DNA of 64,000 bases. Origin: Candidatus Dojkabacteria bacterium (GTDB taxonomy: Bacteria; Patescibacteriota; Dojkabacteria; J137). The notes below the pieces were generated by a model that worked only from the letters and a program-made list of their open reading frames with translations, had not been told where the DNA came from and did not search any database. The stretch is from positions 111 to 64,110 of the forward strand of contig JAUZRK010000002.1 of NCBI GenBank assembly GCA_030950485.1, read 5' to 3'. Of this stretch, positions 2,656 through 61,051 are shown piece by piece. Within the stretch, counting starts at the first letter, position 1; each line of letters starts with the position of its first letter. The position numbers were made by a program, and so were the translations under genes.

Positions 2656-3447
2656 TTAATTTTCAACGATTTTCTTTCCTTGTATAATTTGTTGAATATA
2701 GAATTCTTTCTTGTCGGGATATAATATATATCCCTCGCTACCCCATAAAAACTGAGTTAACCCTCTAAGGCTACTGTATTCTTTTATCTTTGCTAATACT
2801 ATTTCAGTTTCTAATCCATACTCTATAATAAAATCTTCAACATTATTGTCAAACTCTTCCTCAAGGTTCTGAAAATCAAAGTCTATTAGATAGGCTTTAT
2901 CATTTCTGAATATTATGTTTTGTGGATTCAAGTCTCCGTGTGATAACACAATTTTAAGAGGTTCAACGGTATTCTTTTTTAAATATCTAAGTGTATTATT
3001 TATAAATTCTATATCATTTTTCTCAAGCTTATCTTTGATACGACTATAAACTATATTTATATAATCAATCCCATTTTTATAAAAATTATCTTTTCCATTT
3101 TGCTCTACCGAATGAAATTTTTTAAGACTTTTAATCAGTGAAGCAATCTCTTTATAAACTAGTTCTTGTTTTGGATGGTATCGATCTATGTAATCAATTA
3201 ATATGTATGTTGACCCATTTTCTAACACCCCTACTTCATATGATTTAGGAGTTACGCCTGTACTTTCTAGATTTTTATATATTCTATTCTGTTCAGAATA
3301 ATTTCATTCATGATGGCTAGATATTTTTAAAACATAATCCCCTGTGTTTGTGACAATTTTAAGATTACTGCTTCTAAGTCCATTGGGGAGTTCGCTTGTA
3401 TTTATTACTTTTTTATCATTAAAAAATTCGAATTTAGATATATCCAT
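2656..3447 (-). pseudogene. APH/choline-kinase-family phosphotransferase interrupted by an in-frame TGA (codon 48, nt 3304-3306)
   Basis: Reverse-strand frame reads MDISKFEFFNDKKVINTSELPNGLRSSNLKIVTNTGDYVLKISSHHE * NYSEQNRIYKN...VGVLENGSTYILIDY...HGDLNPQNIIF...LIDFDF. The kinase catalytic motifs (HGDLNPQN, DFD) lie downstream of the stop. The 6-frame track reports only the 3' part, 2656-3228. Confidence 0.6.
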
Positions 3448-3616
3448 TAGTTACTTCTTTTTTATAAGTGTACCACAGAATTTGAGGAAGTTTAGCAAGT
3501 CAATTAACTATACAATATGTAATTTTTTTACCCATTTTTATTTAGAGATTCTAGGAAGATTATTAACTAGAGTATTTATTTGCAATTTGACAATTGAAGA
3601 TTGAAATTTATTTGAA

Positions 3617-3688
3617 AGGTGTAGGCGGGGATCGAACCCGCGAATAACGGTTTTGCAGACCGACGCCTTACCACTTGGCTACTACACC
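3617..3688 (-). tRNA. tRNA-Cys (anticodon GCA)
   Basis: Reverse complement GGTGTAGTAGCCAAGTGGTAAGGCGTCGGTCTGCAAAACCGTTATTCGCGGGTTCGATCCCCGCCTACACC(T) folds as a cloverleaf. Acceptor GGTGTAG/CTACACC; T-arm GCGGG-TTCGATC-CCCGC; anticodon loop CTGCAAA; discriminator U; CCA not encoded. Confidence 0.88.
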
Positions 3689-3799
3689 TTGATGTGTGCA
3701 ATTTTAATAATACTTATTTTACAAGCTTTTTACCATCCCGATAGTAAATCGGGACTAAGATCTTGCTATTCTCGTTTCACTCGAATGCAATCTCTTGAG

Positions 3800-3814
3800 C
3801 TTGGGTACTACACC
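3800..3814 (-). repeat. Duplicated 5' fragment of tRNA-Cys (GGTGTAGTACCCAAG, 14/15 identical to tRNA positions 1-15), not a complete tRNA
   Basis: Same strand, about 110 nt upstream of the tRNA. No matching 3' acceptor strand or T-loop downstream. A hairpin (TTTTGAG...CTCAAAA) sits beside it. Confidence 0.5.
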
Positions 3815-4035
3815 ACAGAATTATGAGTTTTGAGTAGCGAGTTTAGAGCTAGCTCAAAATTCAACATTATTTTTAAAGAGTGAATAAATAACTTTATGAT
3901 TATACTAATTATTCTAATTGTACTAGAAGTACCTTGGTCGAAATTATTATAGCAGAGAAAAATAGTTAATAGCTACTTATAAGAGTTTAACTTACTAGAA
4001 CAATTAGATAAATTAGAAATTAGAATAATTCTATT

Positions 4036-4725
4036 TTATCTCTCTTCTTGCCAGAAAAACCCATCATTAGTTACAACTATCTTACCTCTAACTTCCATAT
4101 CATACTCAACATAAGATCCTCCTTTACTAGGTTGAGGTACACTGTCTATAAATACCTTATAGAAAGATTTTTTAAAACTACCCTTACCTCTTATTGTAGA
4201 GGCAATATCTCTATATGTATCATCATTACCTCCAACTGTTATTTTTGAAGTCATTCCACTTTTTCGATCATTTTCAACATCATCGTCCGAATATTCAGCA
4301 CTTATAGTATTAAATTTATAAGCAGTCTCAAAGTTTAACAGTATAAATTCATCCTTAAATTTAATAATCTCTCCTCCAAATTCAAATGTATCCCCATATA
4401 ATTTATAAGTTTCAGACTCTTCCTCTATTAAATCTGGGTTTGGATTATCCTCTCCAACAAATAGTCTTGATAAAGCTGACTGATCTGATTCTATTGGAGT
4501 TATAGTTACTTCAAAATATTTACCTAAATCATCTTCCTGAATTTCACTAATTACAACTTCTGCAACATCCTTGTCCTCAGTAAACACTTTATATGTATGT
4601 AGCCAACTAGCTATAAATATTAGAAATACTGATATAAAGCAAGATATTAGAAATAATATTATTAATATAAGACCAGCTGTTGATTTAAATAAATTCTTCA
4701 TAGTGAAATTATACATTATTAACAT
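4036..4725 (-). CDS. Hypothetical membrane-anchored protein
   Basis: 229-aa ORF with an N-terminal TM segment (LILIILFLISCFISVFLIFIASWL); no recognisable domain. Confidence 0.55.
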   Translation of the reverse strand: MLIMYNFTMKNLFKSTAGLILIILFLISCFISVFLIFIASWLHTYKVFTEDKDVAEVVISEIQEDDLGKYFEVTITPIESDQSALSRLFVGEDNPNPDLIEEESETYKLYGDTFEFGGEIIKFKDEFILLNFETAYKFNTISAEYSDDDVENDRKSGMTSKITVGGNDDTYRDIASTIRGKGSFKKSFYKVFIDSVPQPSKGGSYVEYDMEVRGKIVVTNDGFFWQEER

Positions 4726-4753
4726 CTATTTATACAGAACTAAAAGAGGTATA

Positions 4754-5275
4754 ATGTATTATATGAAACAATTAAGACCAAAAGAAATAAAAAAGAAATT
4801 TAAGCGAACTAAAAGAGAAAAGACTGTCTATGTTATAGCTGAGAATATTCAATACGCTAGAAATGTAGCTAGTATGTTTAGAACAGCAGATGCTGCTGGA
4901 GTTCGAAGAATTTATCTAACTGGAATTTCACATACACCTCCTTTTGGTAAAGAACTAGTAAAAGTCTCAAGAAGCAAAGAAAGAAATGTCGCATGGATGA
5001 GTAGAAAGGTGGCAAATAAAACTATTGACCTACTTAGAAGAGAAGGTTTTTTTACAATCGCTGTTGAATTAACAGATAGATCAATTGATATGAGTGAATT
5101 GCCAGAGATAGCAGATGAACACGATAAAATTTGTTTAGTTGTTGGTAGCGAGGTTCATGGTGTTACTAAAGCAACATTAGAGTCGTGTGATTTATCAGTA
5201 CATATACCAATGTATGGAGCTGGTAAGAGTATTAACGTTGCTCTAAGTCTAGGAATCATTCTTTGGCAACTTTAA
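4754..5275 (+). CDS. SpoU/TrmH-family RNA 2'-O-methyltransferase
   Basis: The ORF track begins at 4571 and overlaps the upstream gene. ATG at 4754 has an AGAGGT RBS and is the likely start. SPOUT motifs: AENIQYARNVASMFRTADAAGVRRIYL, LVVGSEVHGV, IPMYG..SINVALSLGIIL. Confidence 0.75.
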   Translation: MYYMKQLRPKEIKKKFKRTKREKTVYVIAENIQYARNVASMFRTADAAGVRRIYLTGISHTPPFGKELVKVSRSKERNVAWMSRKVANKTIDLLRREGFFTIAVELTDRSIDMSELPEIADEHDKICLVVGSEVHGVTKATLESCDLSVHIPMYGAGKSINVALSLGIILWQL

Positions 5276-6337
5276 GCCTTTAATTATACTCCTCTGCCCC
5301 CAGTGATCTGAAAAATATATTGGGTCGACGTCATCATGTCTTATAAAATCTAGGCCACTACTAATTAAACTATAATCAATCCTCCATAGTTTTAAACCAT
5401 TATCTTCCCAAGTAGCGGGAAATAAAACTCTTGATTTTGTATAAGAATCTTTTGTTAGTTTTAAAAGGTTATTCATACTCCCCATTGCCTTCGTTGAATT
5501 AAAATCACCTGCGATGATATATTGATTATTGTTGTCTTTAACATCATCTAATAAGGTATCAAAATAATACTTTCTAATCTCAAACTTACTTTTAATGTTT
5601 TCAATAACAGTTCCTTGTCCATAAAACTGGACTGGCATATGGACATTATAAACAGTTAAAATTTCATTATTGCCAAGATCAACATCTAATCTCGTCCAAT
5701 ATTTTTTTCTTACTGTATTTTCGTCTACAAATGGATACTTACTAATTGTTAGCATGTCTTCATAAGCATCTACATAATAGTCTTGAAATTCATTCCCTAC
5801 TCTATTCTTCTCATTATTATAGTAAAAATAGTCAAAAGTCTCTGAAGGACTTAAGACTCCAAACTCTTGAAGAGTATATATATCAGCTTCTTGGGATTTT
5901 ATATGACTTATAAAATGGTCAATATTATTATCAGGCTCCCAATAAAGTGTATTCCAGTTAAATAACACTAAAACCTCGTCCCTACTAAAATCATCATATT
6001 TAGCGAGCTTATTTTCAATGTAATTTAAATTTATATCAGATATTGGAAGACTAAGGAAAACTGAAATCAGGAGCAATACTATAATAACAAAAGTTTTCCG
6101 GTTTACATTTTTAAAATCCTTTACTTTACTATCCTTGTTAGCCAGTGCTTTATAGGCTAAGAAGAGAAATGTAAATGATAGAGAAATTAAAACATAAGTC
6201 ATTGGAGGAATTACTGAAGTTAAGTTCCAAAACCAAAATTTACCAATTAGAAAATGATGACTAAGAAGATATGAAAGCCAAAATAAACTGGCTGTAAATA
6301 TTAAATTGTTCCTAATCTTTTTAAATAATTGATTCAT
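5249..6337 (-). CDS. Endonuclease/exonuclease/phosphatase (EEP) family membrane protein
   Basis: 362 aa. N-terminal TM helices, then an EEP-like catalytic region ending IDYSLISSGL...FSDHWGQ (typical EEP C-terminal SDH motif). Confidence 0.65.
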   Translation of the reverse strand: MNQLFKKIRNNLIFTASLFWLSYLLSHHFLIGKFWFWNLTSVIPPMTYVLISLSFTFLFLAYKALANKDSKVKDFKNVNRKTFVIIVLLLISVFLSLPISDINLNYIENKLAKYDDFSRDEVLVLFNWNTLYWEPDNNIDHFISHIKSQEADIYTLQEFGVLSPSETFDYFYYNNEKNRVGNEFQDYYVDAYEDMLTISKYPFVDENTVRKKYWTRLDVDLGNNEILTVYNVHMPVQFYGQGTVIENIKSKFEIRKYYFDTLLDDVKDNNNQYIIAGDFNSTKAMGSMNNLLKLTKDSYTKSRVLFPATWEDNGLKLWRIDYSLISSGLDFIRHDDVDPIYFSDHWGQRSIIKGLKLPKNDS

Positions 6338-6437
6338 TTCTCTATTATATTACAGATAGAAGACACTCGCGTAAGAAAATAGTGACTTAAATAGGGTGTA
6401 GTTAAACTACACCCTATCAGTATTACTCTACGATCTA

Positions 6438-6875
6438 TTAAAATGGAAGATCGTCAGGATTTATTGTTTCATCAGAAGATGCCCCTTGTGAACTGTTTCC
6501 AGATGACTGTTGAAAGTCAGATCCGCTGTTGTCTCCTTCTCCTCCAGTGTATCTAGAGATTAGGATTACTTTATCTACTATCACTTCAGTTCTATAGTTT
6601 TTCTTACCATCGTCAGAATCCCAACTTCTAGTATGAGATCTTCCTTCTAAGAAAACTCTAGTTCCTTTTTGTAGTCTTTTTGCTAAAGATTCAGCATTTC
6701 TCCAAACTACTATATTATGGAAACTAACTTCGTCTTTCCACTCTTCACCAACTCTATAACTTCTATTTGTTGCAAGTGAAAAGTTTAATACTGCTGCTCC
6801 ACTTGGTGTGAATCTAAGTTCTGGGTCTCTTACAACATTTCCCATTAACTCGATTTTATTGATATCTCCGAACAT
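6438..6875 (-). CDS. ssb: Single-stranded DNA-binding protein
   Basis: OB-fold N-terminus (IELMGNVVRDPELRFTPSGAAVLNFSLATN), a G/S/Q-rich linker, and the acidic C-terminal tail DDLPF. Confidence 0.9.
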   Translation of the reverse strand: MFGDINKIELMGNVVRDPELRFTPSGAAVLNFSLATNRSYRVGEEWKDEVSFHNIVVWRNAESLAKRLQKGTRVFLEGRSHTRSWDSDDGKKNYRTEVIVDKVILISRYTGGEGDNSGSDFQQSSGNSSQGASSDETINPDDLPF

Positions 6876-7101
6876 AAAATATATTTAACAATTAAGAATT
6901 AGCAAATAATAATTAGAATAACTAAATAAAATCTATTTTTAATTAATTAATCTAATTAACCTATACAAGATAATACTCTATAAACTATAAACTTTACAAA
7001 GGTATTATATATTAAGTGTAAGATTCTTGTAATGATTATAAAATCAGTCTAAAAGAAAATATGACTCTTTAATGTTAAAATCTTAGTGATTAATTATCAA
7101 T

Positions 7102-8004
7102 ATGAGTAAGACAAACAACTTACCAAAAGATTATCAAGGAATTGTATATCAGATCATTAGACCTACTGGTCTTTTAGATCCAGTTCTAGATATAAGACCT
7201 TCATTACCTGAAAACTTTGAAAAACTGAAAATAGAATTGGAAAGATGTAATTACACTATGTTTGACAGTTATAAAGCAACTGAATGGGAGGATCCTCAAA
7301 TTCCAGATTTATTGAAGGAAATAAAAAAAAGAATTCATAATAACGAGAGAGTTTTAGTTACTACGCTAACTAAAAAAATGTCAGAAGAGCTAGCAAACTA
7401 TTTGATAGAAAAAGATATTAAAGCTAAATACCTTCACTCAGACATCGATACAGTTGAGAGAGTTGAAATTTTAAGAGATTTAAGAATGGGGAAATATGAT
7501 GTAGTTGTTGGAATTAACCTGCTAAGAGAAGGATTAGATTTGCCAGAAGTATCACTAGTAGCAATACTAGATGCTGATAAAGAGGGTTTTTTAAGATCAG
7601 ATACTTCTCTCCTTCAAACAATTGGAAGAGCAGCTAGAAACCTAAATGGTAAAGTTATAATGTATGCGGATAAAGTTACAGGCTCTATGCAAAGAGCTAT
7701 AGATGAAACAATCAGAAGAAGAGAGATCCAGGCGAAATATAACATTGATCATGGCATTACTCCAAAAAGTATTCAAAAAGCTATAGGGAACCAGCTAGAG
7801 CGATTTCAAGATGACAAAGATGATAAAGAAGATGAGAATGAGGCGAATATAATCAGTCGAGCGGAAAGTTTTAAAATTATGACTAAGAAAGATAGGAAGA
7901 AGTTCTTAAAAGAACTTGAATTTCAGATGTTGTTATATGCTGATCTAATGGAATTTGAGAAGGCTGCGGAGATGAGAGATTTACTTAATGAATTAAAGAA
8001 GTAA
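7102..8004 (+). CDS. uvrB: UvrB C-terminal half only (helicase domain 2 plus UVR motif); N-terminal ~400 aa absent; likely gene remnant
   Basis: [11 protein letters not shown]...[12 protein letters not shown]...[57 protein letters not shown]...TIGRAARN aligns with E. coli UvrB from about residue 410 to the end. No ATP-binding N-terminal domain anywhere in the window. Upstream is AT-rich intergenic DNA shared with divergent ssb. Confidence 0.8.
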
Positions 8005-17193: not shown

Positions 17194-18081
17194 ATGATAG
17201 ATGAACTTATAAAAACAGGAGAAACTGATGAACCAGATGATTTAGATGAGAGGGGGAATATCGCTGAACTAGAGTCAATTAACCAAACTAGAATACAGTT
17301 GGGCCACTTTAAAAATGCTGCCAGAAGGTATATGTATAAAACTATCGAAGTAATTGAAAAAGGAGATTCTTTTAATAGTTTTTTAGCTACGTTATTTAGT
17401 CCTATTAGTATTCAAGGATTCTATAACTTACAGGCTACGATAGATCTTGCTTTGAATGATTTAAATATAGAGGAAATTGTTCCTGGTGTAATTTCTATAA
17501 ATTTTACAGTACCTATGAAAGAACTTGCAGCAATTAGTGTAATCCCAACGGTAGCAGCAAGTGCTATTAAAAAGGTTGTTCGTGGCGCTCTTGGTGATAG
17601 GCTTATAAGTATTACCAATAAATCAGATTGGAGAACAAATAATAGTACTTTTGAAGTTAAGATTAATTTAGAACAAGAATCTTAATCAGGTAAATCCAAT
17701 AAAATCTCTAGTTCGAACAAGGAAACTTTCGAGTATATTCAAGAAAAATTTCAAAAATGCTCTGTAAGAGGAGATATTATAGTTTATTATACTGGAGAAT
17801 CATTAGAACAAGCTGATTCTATCTTTCCGGTAATAACACTACAGATTTATAATACAGATTCAAAGTCATGGAGACCTGAATTTAAAGAGTATGTAATGTT
17901 TAAACCAACAGATTCTAATGGAAATGGTCCTGTACATGTTCTATCTAGAAAACATTTTGAATCTGAAGTTAGTAAATTTATTTTTGGATCAGCCAATCAA
18001 GTATTTGATTCTGTTTGCATGAGAAGAAAAGATAATGTATCTCAAGCTCCAGTTCTAATATTCGAAGAGATAGAAATGTAG
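17194..18081 (+). pseudogene. Hypothetical protein gene with one in-frame TAA (17683-17685); the same frame stays open to 18081
   Basis: ORF 17194-17685 (163 aa) is followed directly, in the same frame, by 132 codons of open frame with no in-frame ATG until 17896. Confidence 0.45.
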
Positions 18082-20173: not shown

Positions 20174-20536
20174 ATGGTGCTAAAAGATGGGGACTATAAT
20201 ATTATAAGTGATGATGCTGAGGGTATTGAAAATAAATTAGAAGATGCTTTGAATTTATTCGATCCTATTGATGATAATAATGGGAGAAATAGACTAGATA
20301 ACATTCTTAACCAACTTGCCCAAGATGATCAGCTAGCTATGACTAGTGCTATTAAGCTTGCAGCAGTTTTTGGATTTCCAAAAGTAGATAGATTATTTGG
20401 AGAAGAGTCTGAACATATGTTTGAAAGCGCTGAACATTTCGTTCTATCGCTAGGTCTTTATTTAATGAGACTTGTAGAGATTAGAGAGCATTTCTTAGAC
20501 CAAATTGATTTTCTATACGATATATCAAAAGATTAG
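20174..20536 (+). CDS. Hypothetical acidic protein
   Basis: 120-aa ORF; first of a co-directional run of small acidic ORFs. Confidence 0.5.
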   Translation: MVLKDGDYNIISDDAEGIENKLEDALNLFDPIDDNNGRNRLDNILNQLAQDDQLAMTSAIKLAAVFGFPKVDRLFGEESEHMFESAEHFVLSLGLYLMRLVEIREHFLDQIDFLYDISKD

Positions 20537-20761
20537 GGCGCTAACTATAATAAATTTAATTCTGATTCATTTTTTGAAGAAATGGACAACGGATTGATTG
20601 AGACTTTCGAAGGTGTTAAAGGAATGAGGTACTCATAATCTTATAATAAAAAATATTGGGAATGGGTAAATACAAACGTAGTAGCAGTAGAGAAAAATCC
20701 AAACTTAGCAGTTTTTATATATTTATATCATAAGACTGTTGATAGCTATACTTTAGATGGG

Positions 20762-21085
20762 GTGGCAGCTATGCCAGATGCGATAATAGATAGTATGAAA
20801 AGAGCTATTTCAATTAGTGCTCTTAGGGTGAATGGCGGGCAGACTTATGCTGATTTAATTAACTCAAGAGAAGGGATGACTATTGTAAATTTAAGTCCCG
20901 ATTCACATTTAAAAGTAAATACTTTGTTAGAAGGATTATTCCAATCTGGAGTTAATTTTGCTAGTAGGGTTGAAACTACTAATGTTTTAAGGAAATTAAG
21001 GGAAACGGATCGTCAGAAATATGAGGCTGTAAAGTTAAGGGTTTTTGATGTATTGAGGTATTTGGAATTTAGAAATTCGCACTAA
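20762..21085 (+). CDS. Hypothetical protein
   Basis: 107-aa ORF. Confidence 0.45.
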   Translation: MAAMPDAIIDSMKRAISISALRVNGGQTYADLINSREGMTIVNLSPDSHLKVNTLLEGLFQSGVNFASRVETTNVLRKLRETDRQKYEAVKLRVFDVLRYLEFRNSH

Positions 21086-26604: not shown

Positions 26605-28704
26605 ATGCATTGCAAAAATCTCGCAATTTTAGCACTAGCAGGTTGTTTAGTATTAATGCCTTCTTTTAAAAATGGTGGTAATGGTGGAGGTTTTACACCA
26701 TCTCCTGGAACTGCATTAGCTCAAGATCAAAACGAGTTTGAAAAAGAGTTTTGGCTTTTTGGCGGATTAAATGTTTATGGAGGGCTAGGACTGAATCAGG
26801 ATACTGGTTTGTTAATTCAAACAATAGATGGAATTATTGAAGCTTATGAAAAAAAACTAAATCAGTTTCAAAAGTATTTTGAAACCGACCAACTTCTTAA
26901 TGTAGACTTGCTAATTCTAGCTCCGACAAAAATGAATACAGATTATGTAAGTTCTAGTATTGAAGTTACGAATAGATTAAGGGAAGAGTATCCGGGTATA
27001 ACTATAAGTTTTAATATGAGGCCCACTGATGAATATACCGATGAAACATTTATTGAGAGGTATACGGAAGTGCTTGAAAGAATAAATTTAGGTGTTATAG
27101 GTGATAAAAGTAATGTAAGAGTTTCATTAGATCTTGAAAAGTGGTTTGTTGACGGTCATAGAGTTACTTCTGCAGAGACTATGAGAGAATTAGAGAGAAT
27201 AGCAGTTGAGGAATTTGGATTACAGGGATTTTCATCTTTATTTGAAGTTATAACAATTAAAGAACCTTCAAATAATATAGATGACGATTTAGAAAATAAT
27301 GAGAGTGGTCAACTATCAAAAACTGAAGTTATTGATGATGAAATTCCTCCAGAAATACCTGCACACAGTTGGAACTTTATAAATCGAAAAATTGCAACAA
27401 TTGCATTAATTTCCATTTTGACAATTTCAACAGGAGTGAGACCTATTCTTGACAAACAAGGTACTAAAGCTCTCTTATCTAGAGTTCCAGCTTGTTTTGC
27501 AATCGGAAGCGCTGCTGAAGATCTTTGGGAAAGTGGGAACAAGTAAGCCGCAATTGAAAGATTATTTCAATCTTATATTGCTTACTGGGGTATATCACTT
27601 GGCGTTGAAAATACTTCTGAGTATTGTGAAGCTATTCTTAATACTGCTATTCAAGAAAATACCATTGCTACTATAAATTTCAATGATATTTTTAATTATG
27701 AAATGCCACCAAGTGGCTTTGAAGTGAATTTAACTGAGACTAGATCATTTGTTGGAGGTGTAGTTAGAGGTTTCTTGCCCGCTACTTATGGTGAAGAAAA
27801 TGTAACCACAGATTCTGGTTATGGGGTAGTTGTTGAGGGAGATATAACTTATATAATTATACCTGGGAGTCATATTCCTGAAGTACAAAATTACTTAGTA
27901 CAGAATTTGGGCTTCGCACTTAATTCACTAGGAACTGAAGAATTTCCAAGAGAAAAGGTGTTAGGAATAAGTGTAAGGAGATTACAGACTCCTCTCTTAA
28001 TTGATTCATATCAATCTTACAAATCGATTGAATATGCCAGAGAAGAGATAAATACTGAACTTCCAATTAACAGCCTCTATCCCTTGATAGCTTTTAATGA
28101 GGGGGAATCTCCAGAGAGTATTATCTATAATGGAAACATTGGAGAACAAATTATTAATGGTGAGATAAATTATGATACTCCATTCCTAGCTTCATACGAT
28201 GGTGTAAATTACGTAATGTTGAATGGGAGAGAAGTAATTGAAAATCAAAGTAGTTTAGTTCATGCAGTACATGGAACTTTCCCTCTATATTCTAATGGTA
28301 GAAACTTAATGAATGATGATAATAGATTCTGGAGAGAACTAGTAGGAGGAACTCAAAGGGCATTTTTAACAATGGAAGATCGAAGCACTTTACCATTAGG
28401 TTTAGCAGTAATTTTTAACTTCGAAGGATCAGATGAAGTGTTTGTAGCAGAGCTCCCTGTACTTTCTTTAATTGATGATCAAGCAAGGAATAGTTTCTTT
28501 ACTGCAATTGAAGAAGCTTACTCGATTCAGTATGGTCGAGAGATGAGAATAGATAAAGCTTTTGCTCCTGATGTTAAATACACTGGTGTTTCTGGAGGTA
28601 ACTTTAATAATTTAGGAGTTGATATTCTGGGAGATAGAAGGAGCGGAGTTTCAGGTTTTCCTTTTTCAACTATTTCATTAGTCATTACTGAAAGAGATAA
28701 CTAA
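26605..28704 (+). pseudogene. Secreted hypothetical protein gene split by one in-frame TAA (27544-27546) into 313-aa and 333-aa ORFs
   Basis: ORFs 26605-27546 and 27703-28704 share a frame. The 156 nt between them is open in that frame (AAIERLFQSYIAYWGISLGVENTSEYCEAILNTAIQENTIATINFNDIFNYE). N-terminal signal peptide MHCKNLAILALAGCLVLMPSF. Confidence 0.5.
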
Positions 28705-41855: not shown

Positions 41856-43534
41856 TTACGTTCTTTTCTTTCGCAAACCAATCAATTGTTTCAGGGGAAA
41901 ATTTTTATCAATGTATTCGAAATTGATATTAAAATGAGGAAATACCCCAGCGTTTTGTATTTTTGGAATATATTCTTTAATCTTATCTGAGTCTTCTCCA
42001 CTCTTTCCTTTACACGTAACTATAGTTATATTCCACCCATTCTCATTTCTATTTATGTAATTCAAAATTGGATATATTCTATTTACATGATGGATAAATA
42101 CAAAAAACTCTGACTGAGTTGAATGGTTATACATCAATTCTAATTCTTTCCTAACTGGCTCGTATCCACTGAATACCTTGATCAATGATCTTAAAATATC
42201 TTTTTTATACACAATTGCATAAACAAAGAAAATCGAAGGTAAAAAGTATATTAAGAAATAGTAAATATTATTTACGTCGATAATAATGTTTCCAATCAAT
42301 CCGACAAATGTAGCAGTAAACGCTAATATTACATAAAGAATTGGTGCTGAGAACGGTCTTTTAAGTTCAGTTCTAGTTTGTCTTAAAATTAGATTTCCTA
42401 AAGCAAACAAGGTCATAACTCCTAAAAAACTAATTGTATAAACTCCTGCTAATGATAGAAGTTTACCTCCTGTTATAAGTAAAATTGATGTACTTAATAA
42501 GAAGAAACTGATTATAATTCTTGGATGAGAACCTTTTTTATTTTCTTTTAATAAGAAATTAGGAAGGCATTCATCTAAAGCCATTCTATTTACTAAACCT
42601 GTAAGACCTACATAACTTGTTAATACAGCTCCACAAAGTACTAGAAAGGCATCAATTGCTATTAATCCTAATAAACTACCACCACCTATTTCGAATGCAG
42701 CATCTGCTAAAAGAAAATCTTTTGCTGCTACTATTTGATCAAATGGAAGTATGTTTAGAACTAAGAATGCTATTAGCGGGTTAAATATCAACACCCCAAT
42801 TAGCATGTTTCTTAAAGTTTTTTTAAATACTCCTTTTTCCTGTTCTTCTACAAAATTTGAAGAACTTTTAAATCCAGAAACTCCTAAAAGTGAGGCTGAG
42901 AAAGCTAAGAATAAAGTCTTTGCAATCCCTCCGTTCTCAATTATAAGATTACTTGTCACGTCGCTATTATGAGAAAAAAATGAAGCATCATGATTCATTA
43001 TCAAATAAACAATACTGAAAATTATAAATCCTGCTAAAGTTAGTATGTGAGCTACGAATATAGATGAGGCTACTTTTGCCGAGTCTTTGACTCCTGAAAT
43101 AACTAGGATTGCGAATAGAAACAGAATCAGAATTGCTGCTGGTATTACGAAATCACTGAAGCTGAAACTGACGCTTTCACCAAGTGCATGTTCTAGAAAA
43201 CTGAATAAGTACTCTACTGCAATAGTTGCTGAGATTACAGCTGTTGCTACATAGGATAAAATAGTCATTACTCCAGCTGTTGCTGCTAAAGTTTTTGATG
43301 TACCATTTAAAAGAGCGTTATAAGCACCTCCGTTAATTGGTAGGGCCTCTCCTCTCTATAAACAGATTTATAGAAAAATAATACAAGCACTACAGCAAGC
43401 AAAACTAAAGGAGCATAAACTCCAGCGAATAAAGCTGCTATTCCTGAAACATAAAGTACTGAACTTAAAATATCATTTCCTGATATTGATGTTGAATAAA
43501 ATCCGCCTAATTTTTTATGAGGCTTTGATGACAT
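41856..43534 (-). pseudogene. APC-family amino acid permease disrupted by a frameshift near nt 43300-43345
   Basis: The N-terminal 75-aa ORF (43307-43534) ends ...SVYREERPYQLTEVLITLF*. The APC signature GEALPINGGAYNALLNG continues in another frame directly upstream of ORF 41856-43268. The junction lies in an AGAGAGGAGAGG tract. Confidence 0.55.
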
Positions 43535-44744: not shown

Positions 44745-47290
44745 GTAACTTTATAGAATTTATAGATAAAATAGCTTCTGAGAATAACGATAAGTTAGCT
44801 ATGCAGATTAGAAGGCAAGTTGTAATGGAGAAGACAACTTACTCAGACATTAAATCTAATGTTTATAAATTACTAAGTTTCTATAATAAAAATAACATAG
44901 AATTCGGAGATAAAATTTTAATCTGGGGACTAAACTGTCCTGAATACTCTACTTTATTATTGTCTTGTTTTACTTTCGGAAGAGTTTCAGTTCCGGTCGA
45001 CTTTAAAACTACAGTAGAAACAGTAGAAAAAATTATAGATCAAGTGCAACCAAAAATTGCGTTTGTATCTAAATATCTTAATGCTGACTTTATCTATAAC
45101 AGAGTTGAGAAAGTTTACTTTATAGAAGATATATTAGATCTGATTGCAGATTTTGATGAATCAAATGAAATAAAAGATGAATATAAAGATGAAGACAATC
45201 TTATACAAATAGTATTTACTTCAGGTTCAACGGGTACTCCAAAGGGAGTTATGATGTCGCAAAAAAATATACTGAGTAATCTAGATATGATAGATAACTC
45301 AATTCCTAAATTGAAAGAATATAAAACTATTTCAATCCTTCCTCTTAGTCATGTTTATGAGCAGATAGTAGGAATGCTGATGATTTTAAAGAAAGGTGCT
45401 GAAGTTTTATATTTACCTCAAATTAATAGTTTTAGATTGCTAGAAGCAATTGGGGAATATAATCCAACACATTTATTATTTGTCCCCCAGCTGTATTCTG
45501 TTTTTCTAGATAAAATATTTCTAAAAGCAAAAACGGAAGGTACTTATTCTAAATTAGAAAAAGGGTTAAAGTTTGCACCTTATTTACCAAGATTTGTAAG
45601 GAAATTAATATTCAAGAAGATACATAAGAGATTCGGTTCAAATTTCAAATTTTTTGGATCAGCCGGAGCACCACTTAACTATAGGGTAGCGAATATTTGG
45701 GAAAATTTTGGTTTCAAGATATTAGAAGGTTACGGAGCAACTGAAATTGTGGCTGCTGCTACTTTCAATAATTTCGAAGACAAAAGACTAGGATCAGTTG
45801 GAAAACCTTTAAAAGGTGTGGAAATTAAATTTGAAGATAAAGAGATACTCGTTAAATCTCCTAGTGTTACTCTTGGCTATTATAAAAATAAGGAAAAAAC
45901 AGATGAGGTCTTTAAAGATGGATGGTATAAGACTGGAGATATTGGTCATTTAGACAAAGATGGTTATTTATATATAGAAGGAAGAGACGCTTTTAAGATA
46001 GTTTTAGGAAATGGTGAAAATATATATGTAGAGGATATTGAGCAAAAAATAAATAAAAGTAATTTGATATTTGACTCTTTTGTTTATGATTATAAAGAGA
46101 ATGATGAAGTAAGAATTGGTTCTTTTATTATTCAAACAGATAGAACCAAAACTTTAAATCTTGAAAAGTTACTCAATGAAATAAACTCTGAACTTGAATC
46201 AAAACAACAAATATCTAAAATCGAAACCTGGCCAGGGGAAGATTTCCCAAGAACTCATACCCTGAGAATTAATAGAAGAGCAATTCTTAAAGCCTTGGAT
46301 ACTGGTGATTCAGTGAGTAAGTTGGAAAGTGGATATGGAGGAGCTAGTAAAGTTTCTAGCCTACTAGATGTAATATCGGCGGCTGCAAAGATGGATCCTA
46401 AGAACATTAATAAAAATGATACATTATTTAAAACTTTAAGATTAGATTCACTAAAGAGAATTGAATTACTAGCTTCAATTGAAGAATATATGGGAGTTAG
46501 AATTGAGGAGGCTAAGGTTTTACCTGAGACTACTGTTCATGAACTAGAAAAAATGGTAAAGGATGGAGATAAGCAAAAAGAACTGGTTTTGGCTAACTGG
46601 CAGTTTAAATTTTTTGGTAGAGTTTTTGGATGGTTCTTTAATAGGTTATTACTCTTTCCACTACATAGATACGCAGGTATAAAAATTGATAATAAAAATA
46701 GTAATATTAATAATATAAAATTAAGCGGAGGCAGAATAATTTTAATAAATCATCCAGGACTTTTAGATCTGGTTGCAATTATGAGGTATCTAAACAGAAG
46801 AGGTGTTAAGAAAATTGCTACATTGATTTATCCTCCAAATCTGTACCCGAAGAAGTTTAGAGCAAGACTTTTTGAAGGCTCTTTAGGTGCATTACCACTC
46901 TTCAGAGATGGTACAGGGACTAATAAAGTTTTACAGATATGCTCTGACCTTTTAGATAATGGATATTATTTGGTAATTGCTCCACAGGGAAAGATGAAAA
47001 CAGTTGGTGGAAATTCAGAACATCCATTTATGCCAGGAGCTGCATATATGTTAAAACTACTTGGAAAGCCTGTAAATATAGTAACTGTTAACGGGTATCA
47101 TGAACTATGGCCAGTACCTGTAGATAAACATTGGGAAGAAGCAAGAATTAGAGAATTAGGTCCTATGAAAAAAGGGAGTGTAACGATCCAAATATCTGAA
47201 GAACTTACTGAGCACATGGACGAGAAAGTCGATTTGGAAAAGATTAATAAAAACTATCAAGAAATAATGTATAACCAAGAAAAAATATGA
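44741..47290 (+). CDS. Tri-domain fusion: acyl-AMP/CoA ligase + acyl carrier (PP-binding) domain + lysophospholipid acyltransferase (PlsC-like)
   Basis: AMP-binding motifs IVFTSGSTGTPKGVM, GYGATE, YKTGDIG. Carrier motif LRLDSLKRIELLASIEEYMG. Acyltransferase HX4D motif INHPGLLD. Confidence 0.8.
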   Translation: MSNFIEFIDKIASENNDKLAMQIRRQVVMEKTTYSDIKSNVYKLLSFYNKNNIEFGDKILIWGLNCPEYSTLLLSCFTFGRVSVPVDFKTTVETVEKIIDQVQPKIAFVSKYLNADFIYNRVEKVYFIEDILDLIADFDESNEIKDEYKDEDNLIQIVFTSGSTGTPKGVMMSQKNILSNLDMIDNSIPKLKEYKTISILPLSHVYEQIVGMLMILKKGAEVLYLPQINSFRLLEAIGEYNPTHLLFVPQLYSVFLDKIFLKAKTEGTYSKLEKGLKFAPYLPRFVRKLIFKKIHKRFGSNFKFFGSAGAPLNYRVANIWENFGFKILEGYGATEIVAAATFNNFEDKRLGSVGKPLKGVEIKFEDKEILVKSPSVTLGYYKNKEKTDEVFKDGWYKTGDIGHLDKDGYLYIEGRDAFKIVLGNGENIYVEDIEQKINKSNLIFDSFVYDYKENDEVRIGSFIIQTDRTKTLNLEKLLNEINSELESKQQISKIETWPGEDFPRTHTLRINRRAILKALDTGDSVSKLESGYGGASKVSSLLDVISAAAKMDPKNINKNDTLFKTLRLDSLKRIELLASIEEYMGVRIEEAKVLPETTVHELEKMVKDGDKQKELVLANWQFKFFGRVFGWFFNRLLLFPLHRYAGIKIDNKNSNINNIKLSGGRIILINHPGLLDLVAIMRYLNRRGVKKIATLIYPPNLYPKKFRARLFEGSLGALPLFRDGTGTNKVLQICSDLLDNGYYLVIAPQGKMKTVGGNSEHPFMPGAAYMLKLLGKPVNIVTVNGYHELWPVPVDKHWEEARIRELGPMKKGSVTIQISEELTEHMDEKVDLEKINKNYQEIMYNQEKI

Positions 47291-48096
47291 CCGTAAATGA
47301 GTTTAAAAAAATAATTCAAAATAAAAAAGATTCTAATCAGATTCCTACTATAGCTCATAGAGGAAATTCAGGAGAATTTAATGATAATAGTTTAGAAGGT
47401 TTAATATCAGCTTCTAAATCAAACGCAGATGGTGTTGAATTTGATGTTAGAAAAACTAAAGATAATTACTTAATTGTATTTCATAATAATGCAGTTGAAA
47501 TTAATGGTAAAACTGAATGGGTTAGAAATATAGAATAAAAAGATTTTCGGAGTATATATAGTAAGAATGATGCTCCTGAGTTTATAAAAGTTTTAGAAGC
47601 TTTAAAGTCCTCAGATAAAATATTAGATATAGAGATAAAAGATAGCGGTATTATTAAAAAAGTTTGGGAGTTACTTAAAGAAAACGACCTTATAAAAAGC
47701 TCTGTGTTTTCTACTGTTTACGATGAAATATATAACGAGATTAAGTCTGTAGATGAAGAGGTCGCTGTGATGTATGGTTATCTAAGAGACCGATGTAAAG
47801 ATCTCGCGCATAAAAAATGGACTCAACCATTTGTTAAGCTTATACTGAAATTGATGAGAAAAAGAATCTCTAAAACTATAAACGGATTTTATAAAAATGA
47901 GAAATATCCATTTATAACTTTGTATCATAAAGTTATAACTAAAGAAGCTGTAAAGACTGTTCATGAGAATGGCGGTTTAATAGGAGGAGTAACAATAAAT
48001 ATAATGGAAGATGACTTTGAAAGTAAAGTAAGTAAAGAAATTACTAGATTTATAGAAGAAGGTGTAGATTTTATTAAGACTGATTTTTTAAAGTAA
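47287..48096 (+). pseudogene. Glycerophosphodiester phosphodiesterase (GDPD) gene with one in-frame TAA (47536-47538)
   Basis: N-terminal ORF carries IAHRGNSGEF..NSLEGL..ADGVEFDVRKTKDNYLIVFHNN. The same frame continues after the TAA, through a GTG-start ORF at 47704, to 48096. Overlaps the upstream gene by 4 nt (ATGA). Confidence 0.6.
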
Positions 48097-55871: not shown

Positions 55872-55892
55872 TTTTATAAAGTAAAAAATAAA

Positions 55893-57335: not shown

Positions 57336-57357
57336 TTATTACTGTGTAATTATCAAT

Positions 57358-57549
57358 CTAATTAATTAAATCACTTACTATTTGAACATCATTCTCCTCG
57401 ATTCCTTCTAAAACTAGCTCTCCTTTATTATCATCTTTTAATTCTAAGCTAACTACCTTATCTTCAAAGCCATTATCCTCAAGCTCCATTCTGATAAGAG
57501 ATACACAAGCTTGGCAGTGCATTCCATCGATTGTAAAAGTTGTATTCAT
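57358..57549 (-). CDS. copZ: Copper chaperone (HMA domain)
   Basis: 63 aa; GMHCQAC metal-binding motif. Confidence 0.75.
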   Translation of the reverse strand: MNTTFTIDGMHCQACVSLIRMELEDNGFEDKVVSLELKDDNKGELVLEGIEENDVQIVSDLIN

Positions 57550-57568
57550 TCTGAAATTATTAAAATAA

Positions 57569-58996
57569 TTAAATTACAAAAATATCTACAGGCTTAACCA
57601 TTCCCATTGAACAAGTAAGTTTATACTGACCTTTATTAGGCTCTCCTAAATCAATCTCAGTTATACCTTTGTTTAATGATACATAATTATCAATTAAACC
57701 ATTTGCAGCCATAAAGTAAGCGCATCCTTGAATACCTTGATTATCTACTATGATTTTTGTAGGTACTCCTGCTTTGATTGTAGTAGAGCTAGTTGGAATA
57801 TATTCAAATCCTTTTGCTGTTATATTGATTATTTGTACTCCTTCTTCATTTGCTGTAACTACCTCTCCTTGTTCAGAGCTGCTGAAAATATCATTCAAAC
57901 TATCTAGTCCTAAAACATTCAACTGCCCATTTATATTGTAAATAGCAAAGAATATAATGACTAATCCTGCTACTATATTGAATTTTGCAGTTAAGTGAGG
58001 CTTTGAATTAAATGCAACTCCACTAAAACTTATCATCATAAGTGGTACAAAAGTACCAAGAGCGAACATCAACATTATTGCAGCACCTCTTATAAAGTCA
58101 CCACTTGTTAATGCTATAGCTTGAGCTATTAAAGTAAATCCACAAGGAAGTAAAAATGTTAATGATCCAAGTAGAAAAGGCATATATCTACCTTTAAAAT
58201 TTGTTTCATCAGATGCAAATCTTGTTAAAGATTTTGGCGCGGTGAATTTAAATCTTTGGAATTTATCTACTCCAAGCATCTGCATTGCTAGTATAAACAT
58301 TATTATTGAGACAATAATTGTGATAGTTGCAAATACAGCTAAGTTATCTAACGATATTTTTTCACCTAATAATCCAAGAACTCCTCCTAAGATTGTAAAA
58401 GATGTAATTCTTCCCAGATGAAAAAGCATATGCGGCTCTGCTTTTTCTCTATTTGAATCCTTATCAATATAAATCTCATTCCATTGCTTACTCATAGATA
58501 GAAGCAATCCTCCAACAAGTGCCGCGCAGCTTGAAAACCCAGCTGCTAATCCTAGGAATAGGAACGCAGGTAAGGCTGATTTTGAATCTACACTAACGTA
58601 CTGACCTAATTTTAGCTCTTGGAAAAAGTAAAAGGCTACTAATAATGAGACACTAATAATAATAAGCCTTAAGTAATTCTTGAACTTTTTTGGGTTTATA
58701 CTTAGCCCTCCATTTTTAAAACTTATTGCTGGAGTTATATCTCTCTTAAACTGTTTGTCGCTAAATTTATATCCTAGACTCTTAAAATCTTTATTAAGTC
58801 CTTCTAAATTAGGTTTTTCTGTTCCAACATATTTTATGTCTACTCTCCCCCCTTTTAGAGAAGCATCAACTGAATCAATCCCGTCTTGCTTTAAAAGTTT
58901 TCTTTCAATTAATATTTCGCAAGAAGCGCAATGCATTCCTTCTACGTAAAGAGTGCAATTTGTAACTTGGTTATTTGGTTTATTTTTTTTGCTCAT
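57569..58996 (-). CDS. Copper-handling membrane protein: N-terminal HMA domain, CcdA/DsbD-like TM core with two conserved Cys, C-terminal cupredoxin-like domain
   Basis: GMHCASCE; TM Cys in FSSCAAL and LLPCGF; C-terminal beta-rich domain with CAYF..CSMGM. Confidence 0.6.
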   Translation of the reverse strand: MSKKNKPNNQVTNCTLYVEGMHCASCEILIERKLLKQDGIDSVDASLKGGRVDIKYVGTEKPNLEGLNKDFKSLGYKFSDKQFKRDITPAISFKNGGLSINPKKFKNYLRLIIISVSLLVAFYFFQELKLGQYVSVDSKSALPAFLFLGLAAGFSSCAALVGGLLLSMSKQWNEIYIDKDSNREKAEPHMLFHLGRITSFTILGGVLGLLGEKISLDNLAVFATITIIVSIIMFILAMQMLGVDKFQRFKFTAPKSLTRFASDETNFKGRYMPFLLGSLTFLLPCGFTLIAQAIALTSGDFIRGAAIMLMFALGTFVPLMMISFSGVAFNSKPHLTAKFNIVAGLVIIFFAIYNINGQLNVLGLDSLNDIFSSSEQGEVVTANEEGVQIINITAKGFEYIPTSSTTIKAGVPTKIIVDNQGIQGCAYFMAANGLIDNYVSLNKGITEIDLGEPNKGQYKLTCSMGMVKPVDIFVI

Positions 58997-59001
58997 TTTA
59001 T

Positions 59002-59280
59002 TTATTTATAATCGAATAATTTTAACAATTCCTCAGTTGTTTTCTTTTCTTCACCATTTTTAACTTGATCAATTACGCAGTGATTAAGATGATCTTCTAT
59101 AATTAAAAGATCTATCTTTTTTAAGGCACTTTGTACTGCTCTAGATTGGTGAACTATATCTACGCAGTATTTATCGTCTTCAAGCATTTGTTGAATTTTT
59201 TTTAGATGACCTTGGACTATCTTTATTCTGTGAATTGCTCTTGTTTTTACATCTTTTTGATGTTTGTGGTTATGTTCCAT
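59002..59280 (-). CDS. csoR: CsoR/RcnR-family metal-sensing transcriptional repressor
   Basis: 92 aa; conserved RIKIVQGHLKKIQQMLEDDKYCVDIVHQSRAVQSAL...HLNHC (Cys-His-Cys copper ligand pattern). Confidence 0.8.
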   Translation of the reverse strand: MEHNHKHQKDVKTRAIHRIKIVQGHLKKIQQMLEDDKYCVDIVHQSRAVQSALKKIDLLIIEDHLNHCVIDQVKNGEEKKTTEELLKLFDYK

Positions 59281-59304
59281 AAGTATATTGTTTGAAATAT
59301 TTTA

Positions 59305-59321
59305 ATCCCTCTATAGGGGAT
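59305..59321. promoter_or_regulatory. GC-rich pseudo-palindrome ATCCC-N7-GGGAT; candidate CsoR operator
   Basis: ATCCCTCTATAGGGGAT lies 25 nt upstream of the csoR start, in the csoR / cupredoxin divergent region. Resembles known CsoR operators (TACCC...GGGTA type). Confidence 0.35.
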
Positions 59322-59480
59322 ATATTACTCCCAATTTTTAAATAATGCAAGAGAAGTTTTTTGTAACAAGTAACCTAAGAAAACGTTTAATGAAGTTTAT
59401 TTCCTGTCTATAGCCATTTGTTTGCCCTCAAAGTAGAAAAATAGTAATCTAATATATTATTTAAATTTTAAAAACGACAT

Positions 59481-59975
59481 ATGAATAAAAATCCATTAAT
59501 CTACATTTTAGCCCTTGCAATAATAGTAATCGGAGGTTATTTAGGCTATCAAGCTTTTAACGACGAAGAAGAAAAAGAAGATAGTGACACTGCCCAAGTT
59601 GATGAAAGAAATGATGAAGTGACAACTACAGTTACTCCTGGAGAAACAAATTTACCAAGTCCTTTAGAAGGCGAATTTGATGGAACAATCTTTGACTTTG
59701 CAGTAACAATGTCTAACAACGAATTTGATATCCCAATGATTGCTGCAGAGCCTGGGGATACAATTAACGTACTTGTAATATCAGAGCAAGGGTCACATAG
59801 TTTTGTTATAGATGAGTTAAATGTAGATACAGGAATATTAACTGCTGGAGAAAGAAAAGAATTGTCTATAACAATTCCAGAAGATATGGCGCCAGGAACA
59901 TATGAATTTTATTGTGGAGTCGGGAATCACAGAGCGCAGGGAATGATAGGAGAATTTGTAGTAACACAACTATAG
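59481..59975 (+). CDS. Cupredoxin (plastocyanin/azurin-like) copper protein, membrane-anchored
   Basis: N-terminal TM; type-1 copper ligand pattern H(S)F...YCGVGNHRAQGM. A hairpin terminator follows at 59999-60034. Confidence 0.7.
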   Translation: MNKNPLIYILALAIIVIGGYLGYQAFNDEEEKEDSDTAQVDERNDEVTTTVTPGETNLPSPLEGEFDGTIFDFAVTMSNNEFDIPMIAAEPGDTINVLVISEQGSHSFVIDELNVDTGILTAGERKELSITIPEDMAPGTYEFYCGVGNHRAQGMIGEFVVTQL

Positions 59976-60195
59976 TCTAAAAATTTCAAGATAATAAAGA
60001 AGGCAACAATCATCATTGTCGCCTTCTTTATTAAAATATTTATTTATCTTGCTTTAATACCATAACCTCTCTAACCTCAACGCTTCAATCTAACTCATAA
60101 GTCGGGCAACCTTTAGTAATTTCTAGTGCTGCATCAATGCTTTTGAGTATAAGGTAATTTTTGTTAAAATCACCTAGTAAAAATATAAACCCTTT

Positions 60196-61051
60196 ATGAA
60201 CCTATTAACGGAACAAGTTTTAAATATGCTACCTCTCTTCTTACTAATACTAATAGGATTTGTTAGTGGAAAAGCATTAAAGATAACTGACTACTCTGTT
60301 ATTTCAAAATTAATAATATTTGTTTTCACACCAATTATTGCTTTTAATGCAATTATCACAGCTCCTGTAAAAGCAAGTTTATTAGTACTTCCATTTCTTT
60401 TCTTTTTTACTACAACAATTTTAGCCTTAGTAACTAAGGTTGTATTAGCAAAATTTACAAAATGGGATTTAGCTCTTATTAATACACTTTCATATAGTTC
60501 AGGTTCTGGAAATGTAGCTTTTTATGGAGTCCCAGCTGTCTTAATACTTTTTGGAGATGAATATTTACCGATAATACTTATAAGTATGATAGGTTATATT
60601 ATTTATGATAGTTCTATAGGTTATATTGGGATTGGTTGCACTAACACTTTATCAAGATTACTCAAGTAATGAGACTTATAGCTTTATAGTTGAAAACTCT
60701 CAGTCTACAATGGCAACTTTAGGGATATTTCTAATTGGTCTTGCAGTTTCTAACTTAAACGTAAAAATGAATAAGTCTTACTTATTCTCAATCTCTCTAA
60801 TAAAAGTAGTAATTAACCCATTAATTATTTTATTATTGATACTCCTAGATAGAGTTACCTTCAACATTTTAGAAGAAAGTTATTATGAAATATTAATGCT
60901 TATTGGATCAGTTCCTGTAGCTACTAACTCAGTAATTCTTGCAACGGAATTTACAAAGAAAGAACAAACAGCAGCTTTAGGAGTTTTAGTTACAGCAATA
61001 TTATCATTATTAAGTATTCCAGTTTGGCAGTATATTGTTGGATTGATATAA
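60196..61051 (+). pseudogene. AEC-family (auxin efflux carrier / malate permease-like) transporter split into two overlapping ORFs by a frameshift (~60626-60669)
   Basis: ORF 60196-60669 carries the AEC N-terminal half and ORF 60626-61051 (frame +1) the C-terminal half (LIGSVPVATNSVILATEF...). Together they make up a ~300-aa AEC permease. Confidence 0.55.

Follow-up and report, generated by a model that had tools for sequence, protein, structure and literature searches.

The window, a 64-kb stretch (31% GC) of a contig from the metagenome-assembled genome (MAG) of an uncultured Candidatus Dojkabacteria bacterium (CPR/Patescibacteria), contains 55 protein genes, seven of which (13%) appear to be interrupted, including four (7%) for which the interruption is proven by homology. 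The lesions are most likely real and young, and we consider it probable, judging from sequence comparison, that they reflect the recent inactivation of accessory genes, i.e. continuing decay in an already reduced genome, and not recent host restriction. Six of the lesions are nonsense substitutions, spread over five genes, and the other two are small indels outside homopolymers, each in a different transporter gene; every broken gene has a single lesion apart from one orphan gene that carries two. All of the broken genes are accessory, orphan or lineage-specific; the neighbouring housekeeping genes are intact and the remaining genes of the window are full length by Pfam, in agreement with an earlier note on this DNA, which had described many intact housekeeping genes beside the lesions. 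The same note had listed four single in-frame stops (three TAA and one TGA) and two frameshifted transporters, all of which we recovered, although two of the stops are backed by frame and codon statistics and not by homology.

Fragments of the disrupted genes match exactly proteins held at NCBI under the name 'MAG: Candidatus Dojkabacteria bacterium', and the closest relatives are Dojkabacteria with 58–75% amino-acid identity and conserved gene order. The related chromosomes encountered in complete or near-complete form measure 0.86–1.2 Mb. Control loci for comparison were taken from an MnmA scan of a genome collection, in which the relatives were 52–58% identical among the matches listed. A second MAG, GCA_030949735.1 (hereafter the sibling), covers 59 kb of the window (positions 1–11599 and 16606–64000) and belongs to the same submission, so that reads or platform might be common to both. 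For this organism the analysis covered the 64-kb window and some 14 kb of flanking sequence from the sibling, which is laden with errors.

Four of the lesions break a continuous domain identified by Pfam. The gene for an APH/choline-kinase-like phosphotransferase (2656..3450, minus strand) is interrupted by an in-frame TGA at 3304–3306, corresponding to residue 48, which lies within the Pfam APH match (residues 19–192); both catalytic motifs, HGDxxxxN and DFD, are preserved, the downstream fragment is the same in both MAGs (P0121) and the sibling has identical DNA around the stop. The gene for a GDPD glycerophosphodiester phosphodiesterase (47287..48096, plus strand) contains an in-frame TAA at 47536–47538, inside a Pfam GDPD match that spans residues 24–268. 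Here the domain evidence is joined by nine uninterrupted homologues of 273–285 aa that align end to end and carry Leu or Phe where the stop falls; at every invariant column of the alignment the interrupted protein has the conserved residue, and both of its fragments occur in both MAGs. The ancestral codon at this stop was most likely TTA (Leu), as far as the alignment can indicate.

The remaining two are frameshifts in transporter genes. In the APC-family amino-acid permease gene (41856..43534, minus strand) three-frame translation and inspection of the DNA placed the shift at ~43340–43360, within the low-complexity purine tract AGAGAGGAGAGG and outside any homopolymer. The repaired protein matches Pfam AA_permease_2 over residues 9–436 (E = 4e-52), and the sibling carries the identical split (493 + 75 aa) with zero DNA differences at the site. 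In the AEC-family (Mem_trans) transporter gene (60196..61051, plus strand) the shift lies between 60619 and 60669, an interval that contains no homopolymer of four or more bases; in the sibling the gene is likewise in two Mem_trans pieces (157 + 139 aa), and its DNA at the site is unchanged.

The other three broken genes, which we designate C, D and H, are orphans whose pieces are annotated by NCBI as separate hypothetical proteins. C (17194..18081, plus strand) has an in-frame TAA at 17683–17685 followed by 131 open codons, the first 70 of which include no start codon; the coding score after the stop is 0.35–0.46, compared to an in-frame mean of 0.44, and the probability of 70 codons remaining open by chance is 0.004. 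C had no Pfam match, and both MAGs contain its 163-aa fragment. D (26605..28704, plus strand), a putative secreted or membrane protein, is interrupted by a TAA at 27544–27546. The 52 open codons between this stop and the next ATG retain coding-like codon usage, the chance of the frame staying open being 0.016, and the two fragments (313 and 333 aa) are both found in both MAGs; the merged protein had zero homologues among 5.8 billion proteins. H (20174..21085, plus strand), which was absent from the earlier list, has two stops, TAG at 20534–20536 and TAA at 20636–20638, inside one 303-codon frame. Its three segments have coding scores of 0.34–0.48, the chance of the frame staying open is 0.003, and its 120-aa fragment occurs in both MAGs. 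On this evidence from reading frame and codon usage, C and D are each probably a single gene with a lesion, D being the weakest call of the set, and H would likewise be a single broken gene. When the window was searched for paralogues of these three orphans, no significant match emerged.

A further gene, a shortened uvrB, had been reported as half-deleted. It is true that the C-terminal half stands alone: the ORF (7102..8004, plus strand) encodes helicase domain 2 and the UvrB and UVR domains (Pfam Helicase_C, UvrB, UVR) and aligns with positions 426–652 of the 653 in the NCBIfam UvrB model, under its cut-off, while the ORF lacks the ATPase half, the N-terminal part made up of domains 1a, 2 and 1b with the beta-hairpin. 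The gene does not represent a deletion lesion, since the same state is conserved across Dojkabacteria. This same C-terminal half of about 300 residues is encoded by more than 120 Dojkabacteria protein clusters (293–317 aa, 60–74% identity), some of them from 0.86–1.2 Mb chromosomes, and the half gene adjoins ssb in the relatives that we fetched. All of the helicase motifs are retained; the alignment has 130 invariant columns, including helicase motifs IV–VI, and the start motif is common to the relatives. Comparison at the sequence level thus identifies the short uvrB as the C-terminal product of an old, conserved gene fission and not as a pseudogene, a product that strong purifying selection maintains throughout the class. 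As the split is ancient and conserved, it has no bearing on current decay.

The N-terminal half was not matched by tblastn with an approximate E. coli UvrB sequence in the window and 85 loci (up to 10 kb in relatives). A stand-alone N-terminal half of 411 aa (model positions 2–406) does exist on a metagenome contig of 35% GC (L124), and an unsplit Dojkabacteria UvrB is also on record (P0111), neither being linked to this genome; when contig L124 was compared with Dojkabacteria by shared genes, the regions had no overlap. In Nanoarchaeum equitans the genes for reverse gyrase and for tRNA synthetases are split. Of the genes discussed here, uvrB alone would be comparable, in that two genes, divided at a domain boundary, encode an enzyme usually made as a single polypeptide, with the halves at separate loci and the arrangement conserved throughout the lineage. 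It differs from the Nanoarchaeum case in that the one stand-alone N-terminal half found lies on the unassigned low-GC metagenome contig; the presence of such a half in this genome is putative, as is reassembly of the halves. Within the library searched we found no paper mentioning a split uvrB in Dojkabacteria, nor any that names the MAG accessions. That uvrB is either in two pieces or lacks its N-terminal part throughout the Dojkabacteria may be of interest to researchers in DNA repair.

An error-prone assembly had been named as the alternative to gene decay, to be recognised by the absence of the same lesions from a close genome with the same flanking sequence. The sequences do come from MAGs and from an indel-prone platform: between the sibling and the window there are 4 substitutions and about 33 indels; the indels are mostly of 1 nt in A/T homopolymers and disrupt some 14 further genes, ssb, mnmA, lepA and gltX among them. 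The sibling is therefore an assembly in its own right that carries errors of its own, and yet the DNA at all eight lesion sites is identical in the two, the roughly 40 differences all lying at other sites. The reading that must be weighed is therefore one of systematic sequencing or consensus errors, recurring at the same contexts in both MAGs and accounting for some or all of the lesions, especially the two frameshifts. The common submission and the position of the permease frameshift in a purine tract are in keeping with it. Against it, every lesion is shared by the two MAGs while the demonstrable errors are not, and substitutions account for six of the eight lesions but are outnumbered about 8:1 by indels among the differences between assemblies. 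Of random substitutions in these genes, 5.4% would create a stop, such that six stops arising from unselected errors would require about 124 substitutions per 64 kb, compared to the 4 observed between assemblies in 59 kb. In the window, no frame shift falls in any of the 446 homopolymer runs within genes, both frameshifts lie outside runs of four or more identical bases, and no common sequence motif, as would be expected for methylation-linked miscalls, was found around the six stops. The sibling does resemble the long-read metagenomes described by Sereika et al. 2022 (PMC9262707), with 1-nt indels in A/T runs splitting essential genes; the window lesions do not, being common to both assemblies, mostly substitutions and outside homopolymers. 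For the same reasons we do not regard error-prone assembly as the explanation, and rate the artefact reading as distinctly unlikely. Since the second assembly reproduces the lesions, gene decay remains the best reading.

Two other explanations accept the interrupting codons as real and dispute their effect. One is that the 'stops' are sense codons in an alternative genetic code, as in the CPR groups Gracilibacteria and Absconditabacteria, where TGA encodes glycine (code 25); the organism belongs to the CPR and one of the lesions is an in-frame TGA. This is a single in-frame TGA in about 19,000 codons, however, and the terminators of the 55 genes (TAA 31, TAG 19, TGA 5) include TGA for five genes as well as TAA and TAG, the other interrupting codons, as the main ones. 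RF2, which reads UGA and UAA, is encoded by a full-length, intact prfB in the window, and conserved genes read cleanly with code 11. Codes 25 and 4 were rejected on the basis of this stop-codon usage and the intact RF2, and a recoded genome appears extremely improbable. The other explanation is that the genes are still alive, through readthrough or suppression or because the pieces work as split polypeptides in the manner of uvrB. Secondary decay is absent apart from the second stop in H, the catalytic motifs of the phosphotransferase and the phosphodiesterase are intact, most fragments are annotated by NCBI as ordinary coding sequences, and split genes are tolerated by the lineage in at least one case, uvrB. 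But decoding of three different stop codons would be required in a genome where all three are normal terminators, and the cuts in the GDPD and APH proteins fall within single compact domains, unlike the domain border at which uvrB is divided. Moreover, the downstream parts lack a start codon for 41–70 codons, and the GDPD split is not conserved, its homologues being uninterrupted. Nor does a SECIS hairpin follow the TGA of the phosphotransferase: the 72 nt from this codon onward fold at -4.6 kcal/mol (z = 0.45), and an Rfam search of the window found a tRNA as the sole element, on which grounds selenocysteine was rejected at this site. APH kinases are not a known selenoprotein family. That the broken genes retain their functions is thus very unlikely.

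With decay as the preferred reading, the density of lesions can be compared to that in relatives. The same mechanical scan of 126 kb from six related genomes found zero true in-frame-stop cases, compared to four in the 64-kb window, bearing out the unusually high density of disruption claimed previously; 'long leader' ORFs in the control loci were rejected as lesions, these being antisense shadows or stop-filled upstream frames. The lesions are judged young because the broken genes contain only one secondary stop in 2,561 codons, where 398 stops are expected per unit of divergence, and we infer for the inactivations an age below about 1% neutral divergence. It had also been suggested that the TAA stops fit AT-biased mutation. 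This receives no support from the one stop that can be assessed, in the GDPD gene, where TTA to TAA is a T-to-A transversion and hence neutral with respect to AT content.

The proposal of reductive evolution through recent host restriction holds as regards gene decay but not as regards the restriction. A recently restricted genome would be expected to show low coding density, pseudogenes with multiple hits and growth of insertion sequences or repeats, whereas the window has a coding density of 90% and one two-hit gene, and no insertion sequences, Pfam transposase domains, long repeats or eroded stretches were seen within its 64 kb. Given these features, and given that this is a CPR bacterium with related chromosomes of 0.86–1.2 Mb and that the window has lesions in accessory or orphan genes alone, recent host restriction does not fit. 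We suggest instead that ordinary loss-of-function mutations strike dispensable genes, that the resulting alleles would become fixed or reach high frequency in a near-clonal population via drift or relaxed selection, and that erosion of the accessory genome would in this way continue in an already reduced, probably partner-dependent bacterium. Some of the loss-of-function alleles in the metagenome consensus may still be polymorphic rather than fixed.

Single-hit pseudogenes are characteristic of recently niche-restricted bacteria such as Salmonella Typhi, Yersinia pestis, Shigella and Sodalis glossinidius. By analogy the window would resemble these in having one nonsense or frameshift mutation per gene with the rest seemingly functional, and in that the damage falls on accessory genes for transport and metabolism and leaves housekeeping genes untouched. 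It differs in that the CPR lineage has long been small-genomed with no recent large-genome ancestor, in the absence of any signal of IS expansion or rearrangement at 90% coding density over the 64 kb surveyed, and in that three of the seven broken genes are orphans without known relatives. In other respects the organism is like the streamlined CPR/Patescibacteria (PMC9166423), with a small genome, many hypothetical proteins, a reduced set of repair and metabolic genes and the coding density of about 90% that is typical of the group. From this high density it had been inferred that CPR genomes hold few pseudogenes (PMC9166423), in contrast to the 7–13% of genes interrupted in the window.

For users of MAGs there is a caution in the sibling assembly, which taken by itself would suggest that roughly one third of genes are broken, although most of this is sequencing error. 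No major concept is altered by our result. A wider interpretation, which we think unlikely, is that a near-clonal Dojkabacteria population has very recently undergone a burst of inactivation across its whole genome, affecting at least 10% of genes within about 1% neutral divergence; a bottleneck might have favoured such a burst, as might weakened DNA repair, nucleotide-excision repair depending here on a UvrB that is in two pieces or lacks its N-terminal part. If true, the window would show the reduction of a CPR genome while it is under way. Even at the scale of the window, 7–13% of freshly interrupted genes in a CPR population would represent a rare view of accessory-genome loss.

In-frame stops were located by a six-frame scan, and Pfam was then run on the repaired proteins. 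In the APH-like kinase gene at 2656..3450 (- strand) a TGA at 3304-3306 falls at residue 48, within an APH match covering residues 19-192, and in the GDPD phosphodiesterase gene at 47287..48096 (+) a TAA at 47536-47538 falls at residue 84, within a GDPD match covering residues 24-268. An exhaustive HMMER search recovered nine uninterrupted homologues of the latter (273-285 aa), which align end to end and carry Leu (six of nine) or Phe (three of nine) at the column of the stop, pointing to TTA to TAA as the most likely ancestral change. Two transporter genes are frameshifted: that for an amino-acid permease (41856..43534, -), whose AA_permease_2 match (residues 9-436) spans a shift lying in AGAGAGGAGAGG at ~43346-43357, and that for an AEC transporter (60196..61051, +), which has Mem_trans matches on both halves and a shift between 60619 and 60669, where there is no run of four or more identical bases. 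The remaining Pfam-bearing ORFs of the window are full length, with the single exception of a hybrid histidine kinase/response regulator (29260-30972, -), which matches positions 34-66 only of the 66-position HisKA model, the first half being absent. Its predicted product seems to have lost the H-box, where the phospho-accepting histidine lies, and an in-frame deletion of ~25-30 codons is a possible cause; the gene could be a further, subtler inactivation.

Two orphan genes, C (17194..18081, +) and D (26605..28704, +), have no Pfam match, and a homologue search with D gave zero matches. The frame beyond the TAA at 17683 in C is open for 131 codons and that beyond the TAA at 27544 in D for 385 codons, with no ATG, GTG or TTG in the first 70 and 52 codons, respectively; with stops making up 7.6% of random codons, leaders this long would stay open with probabilities of 0.004 (C) and 0.016 (D). 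Codon-usage scores of the post-stop leaders (0.35 and 0.32) are coding-like (in-frame mean 0.44 with a 5th percentile of 0.25; off-frame mean -0.89), and we therefore treat C and D each as one interrupted gene. The same scan uncovered a seventh broken gene, H (20174..21085, +), a single 303-codon frame that is coding-like throughout and contains a TAG at 20534 and a TAA at 20636. Nearby, a 640-bp gap is empty but for two short acidic ORFs in different frames (21965-22189, 74 aa, and 22234-22386, 50 aa; both +), possibly what is left of another decayed gene. The in-frame stops (three TAA, one TGA) and two frameshifted transporters described in the earlier note are thus present, the kinase, phosphodiesterase and both transporters being backed by Pfam, and C and D by frame and codon statistics.

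The density of broken genes had also been called unusually high. As a control, 126 kb from six related genomes was put through the same 'long leader' scan, which flagged six ORFs, all antisense shadows or with stop-filled upstream frames, leaving zero true interrupted genes compared to four in the 64-kb window; the kinase gene and both frameshifts are additional to these four. The claim therefore stands for this window against these relatives, except that it had counted uvrB among the lesions.

The window has 31% GC throughout, ~55 protein genes, 90% coding density and one tRNA-Cys, and the closest other genomes are Dojkabacteria or CPR MAGs labelled 'Saccharibacteria'. Identity to these relatives is 52-58% for MnmA (among the matches listed), 60-74% for the C-terminal UvrB protein (among the clusters listed) and 75% for LepA, and gene order is kept across iPGM, a large hypothetical gene, SpoU, Exo_endo_phos, ssb, uvrB-C, mnmA, PCMT, prfB and lepA. 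Directly downstream of uvrB-C and mnmA are tandem arrays of A-rich heptamers, (AAAAAGT)n and (AAAAAAC)n (7996-8146 and 11218-11305); in the first, the window and a sibling MAG differ by 15 bp, and both arrays are possibly unstable low-complexity spacers. A DUF7347 winged-helix domain is fused to NUDIX in two paralogues (14698-15459 and 51558-52250, both -). A 1,734-aa secreted protein (33855-39059, +), in which the sole recognisable part is a VanY/LdcB-like D-Ala-D-Ala carboxypeptidase domain at residues ~1327-1450, may be a cell-wall-active effector. The copper-handling cluster at 53009-59975 (CopA P-type ATPase, DoxX, multicopper oxidase, HMA-DsbD-cupredoxin fusion, CsoR-type repressor and cupredoxin), all of whose genes are intact, is a large outlay for so small a genome (~1 Mb).

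Before the stops are read as lesions, recoding has to be considered. All three stop codons terminate genes (TAA 31, TAG 19 and TGA 5 over 55 genes), the RF2 gene prfB (16029-17120, -) is an intact contiguous 363-aa ORF, no hairpin follows the TGA of the kinase gene, and the GDPD and APH genes are each cut inside one compact domain. These observations lend no support to code 25 or code 4, to selenocysteine or to programmed read-through. The prfB gene usually carries a programmed +1 frameshift, which is absent from the window copy. In a related genome (L081, 16660-17688) RF2 is called as a 334-aa gene, and tblastn aligns the window RF2 from its residue 25 onwards, reaching 24 nt beyond the 5' limit of that call, so the frameshift site may be retained there.

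The other alternative, an error-prone assembly, can be weighed against the sibling MAG GCA_030949735.1, a second assembly from the same submission, whose contigs align to window positions 1-11599 and 16606-64000. Leaving out one messy contig end (window 11400-11600), the two differ by 4 substitutions and ~33 indels, mostly of 1 nt in A/T runs. Every in-gene indel leaves the frame intact in the window and broken in the sibling, splitting ~14 further genes there (including ssb, mnmA, lepA, rmuC, tag, gltX, pfkB and those for the histidine kinase, the 1,734-aa protein, a response regulator and an ABC ATPase), so the platform is prone to indels and the window has the better consensus of the two, the sibling's apparent pseudogene load being largely artefact. 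The earlier note had proposed looking for close genomes with identical flanks that lack the lesions; in the sibling the lesion fragments recur with identical sequence, and all eight lesion sites match. Six of the eight are substitutions, and since a random substitution in these genes creates a stop in just 5.4% of cases, six stops would imply ~124 substitution errors per 64 kb, compared to the 4 differences seen in 59 kb. No shift was seen at any of the 446 homopolymer runs inside window genes, both frameshifts lie outside homopolymers, and the stop contexts have no motif in common. Random error is therefore excluded as the source of the window lesions, and the suspicion of poor assembly is justified for the platform. 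Systematic, context-specific error is possible, mainly behind the two frameshifts, as the two MAGs possibly have read sets in common.

The supposedly half-deleted uvrB is a different matter. The ORF at 7102..8004 (+) carries Helicase_C, UvrB domain and UVR only (Pfam), and at least 120 clusters of homologues have the same form (293-317 aa, 60-74% identity, the best 120 of 8,000 scoring matches), several of them from 0.86-1.2 Mb chromosomes and several named Dojkabacteria. The short gene adjoins ssb divergently in relatives also, and the aligned proteins share a common start, a lineage-specific insertion of ~29 residues and 130 invariant columns, helicase motifs IV-VI included. The same insertion occurs in an unsplit UvrB, a partial Dojkabacteria protein (P0111), so the ancestral uvrB was whole. 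A metagenome scan with the junction region of P0111 returned 33 continuous UvrBs and one unassigned contig (L124, 35% GC) with a stand-alone N-terminal half, a 411-aa protein at 4963-6198 that ends 17 residues past YVSATP and is followed by an unrelated gene; it covers positions 2-406 of the NCBIfam UvrB model, and the window protein positions 426-652. No N-terminal half was found in the window, nor within 10 kb in relatives. The conserved short clusters, ssb synteny, invariant motifs and N-terminal half in L124 together argue that uvrB was split long ago in Dojkabacteria, or lost its N-terminal half, and that the short form has been kept by selection; it is not a lesion of this genome. In the literature library searched, we found no paper on uvrB fission in Dojkabacteria, and this fission is more original than the pseudogenes, though it lies outside the claim assessed and is partly resolved.

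Pseudogenes made by nonsense and frameshift mutations are familiar, and the window adds examples from a lineage that has been little studied. Over the 2,561 codons of the broken genes, ~398 stops are expected for each unit of neutral divergence. H has the single secondary stop observed, which puts the estimated age of the lesions below ~1% divergence. The lesions are also older than the separation of the two near-identical MAG populations. The earlier note took such density as typical of reductive evolution after recent host restriction or symbiosis, but the classical picture of recent host restriction does not fit: no transposases, long repeats or eroded non-coding tracts were found in the window, and its coding density equals the CPR median (PMC9166423). 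The broken genes are all accessory (a kinase, a phosphodiesterase, two transporters and three orphans), and at the positions of the kinase gene and C the two closest syntenic relatives have other genes or none. What fits best is that a bacterium already reduced, and probably partner-dependent, is still losing dispensable genes.
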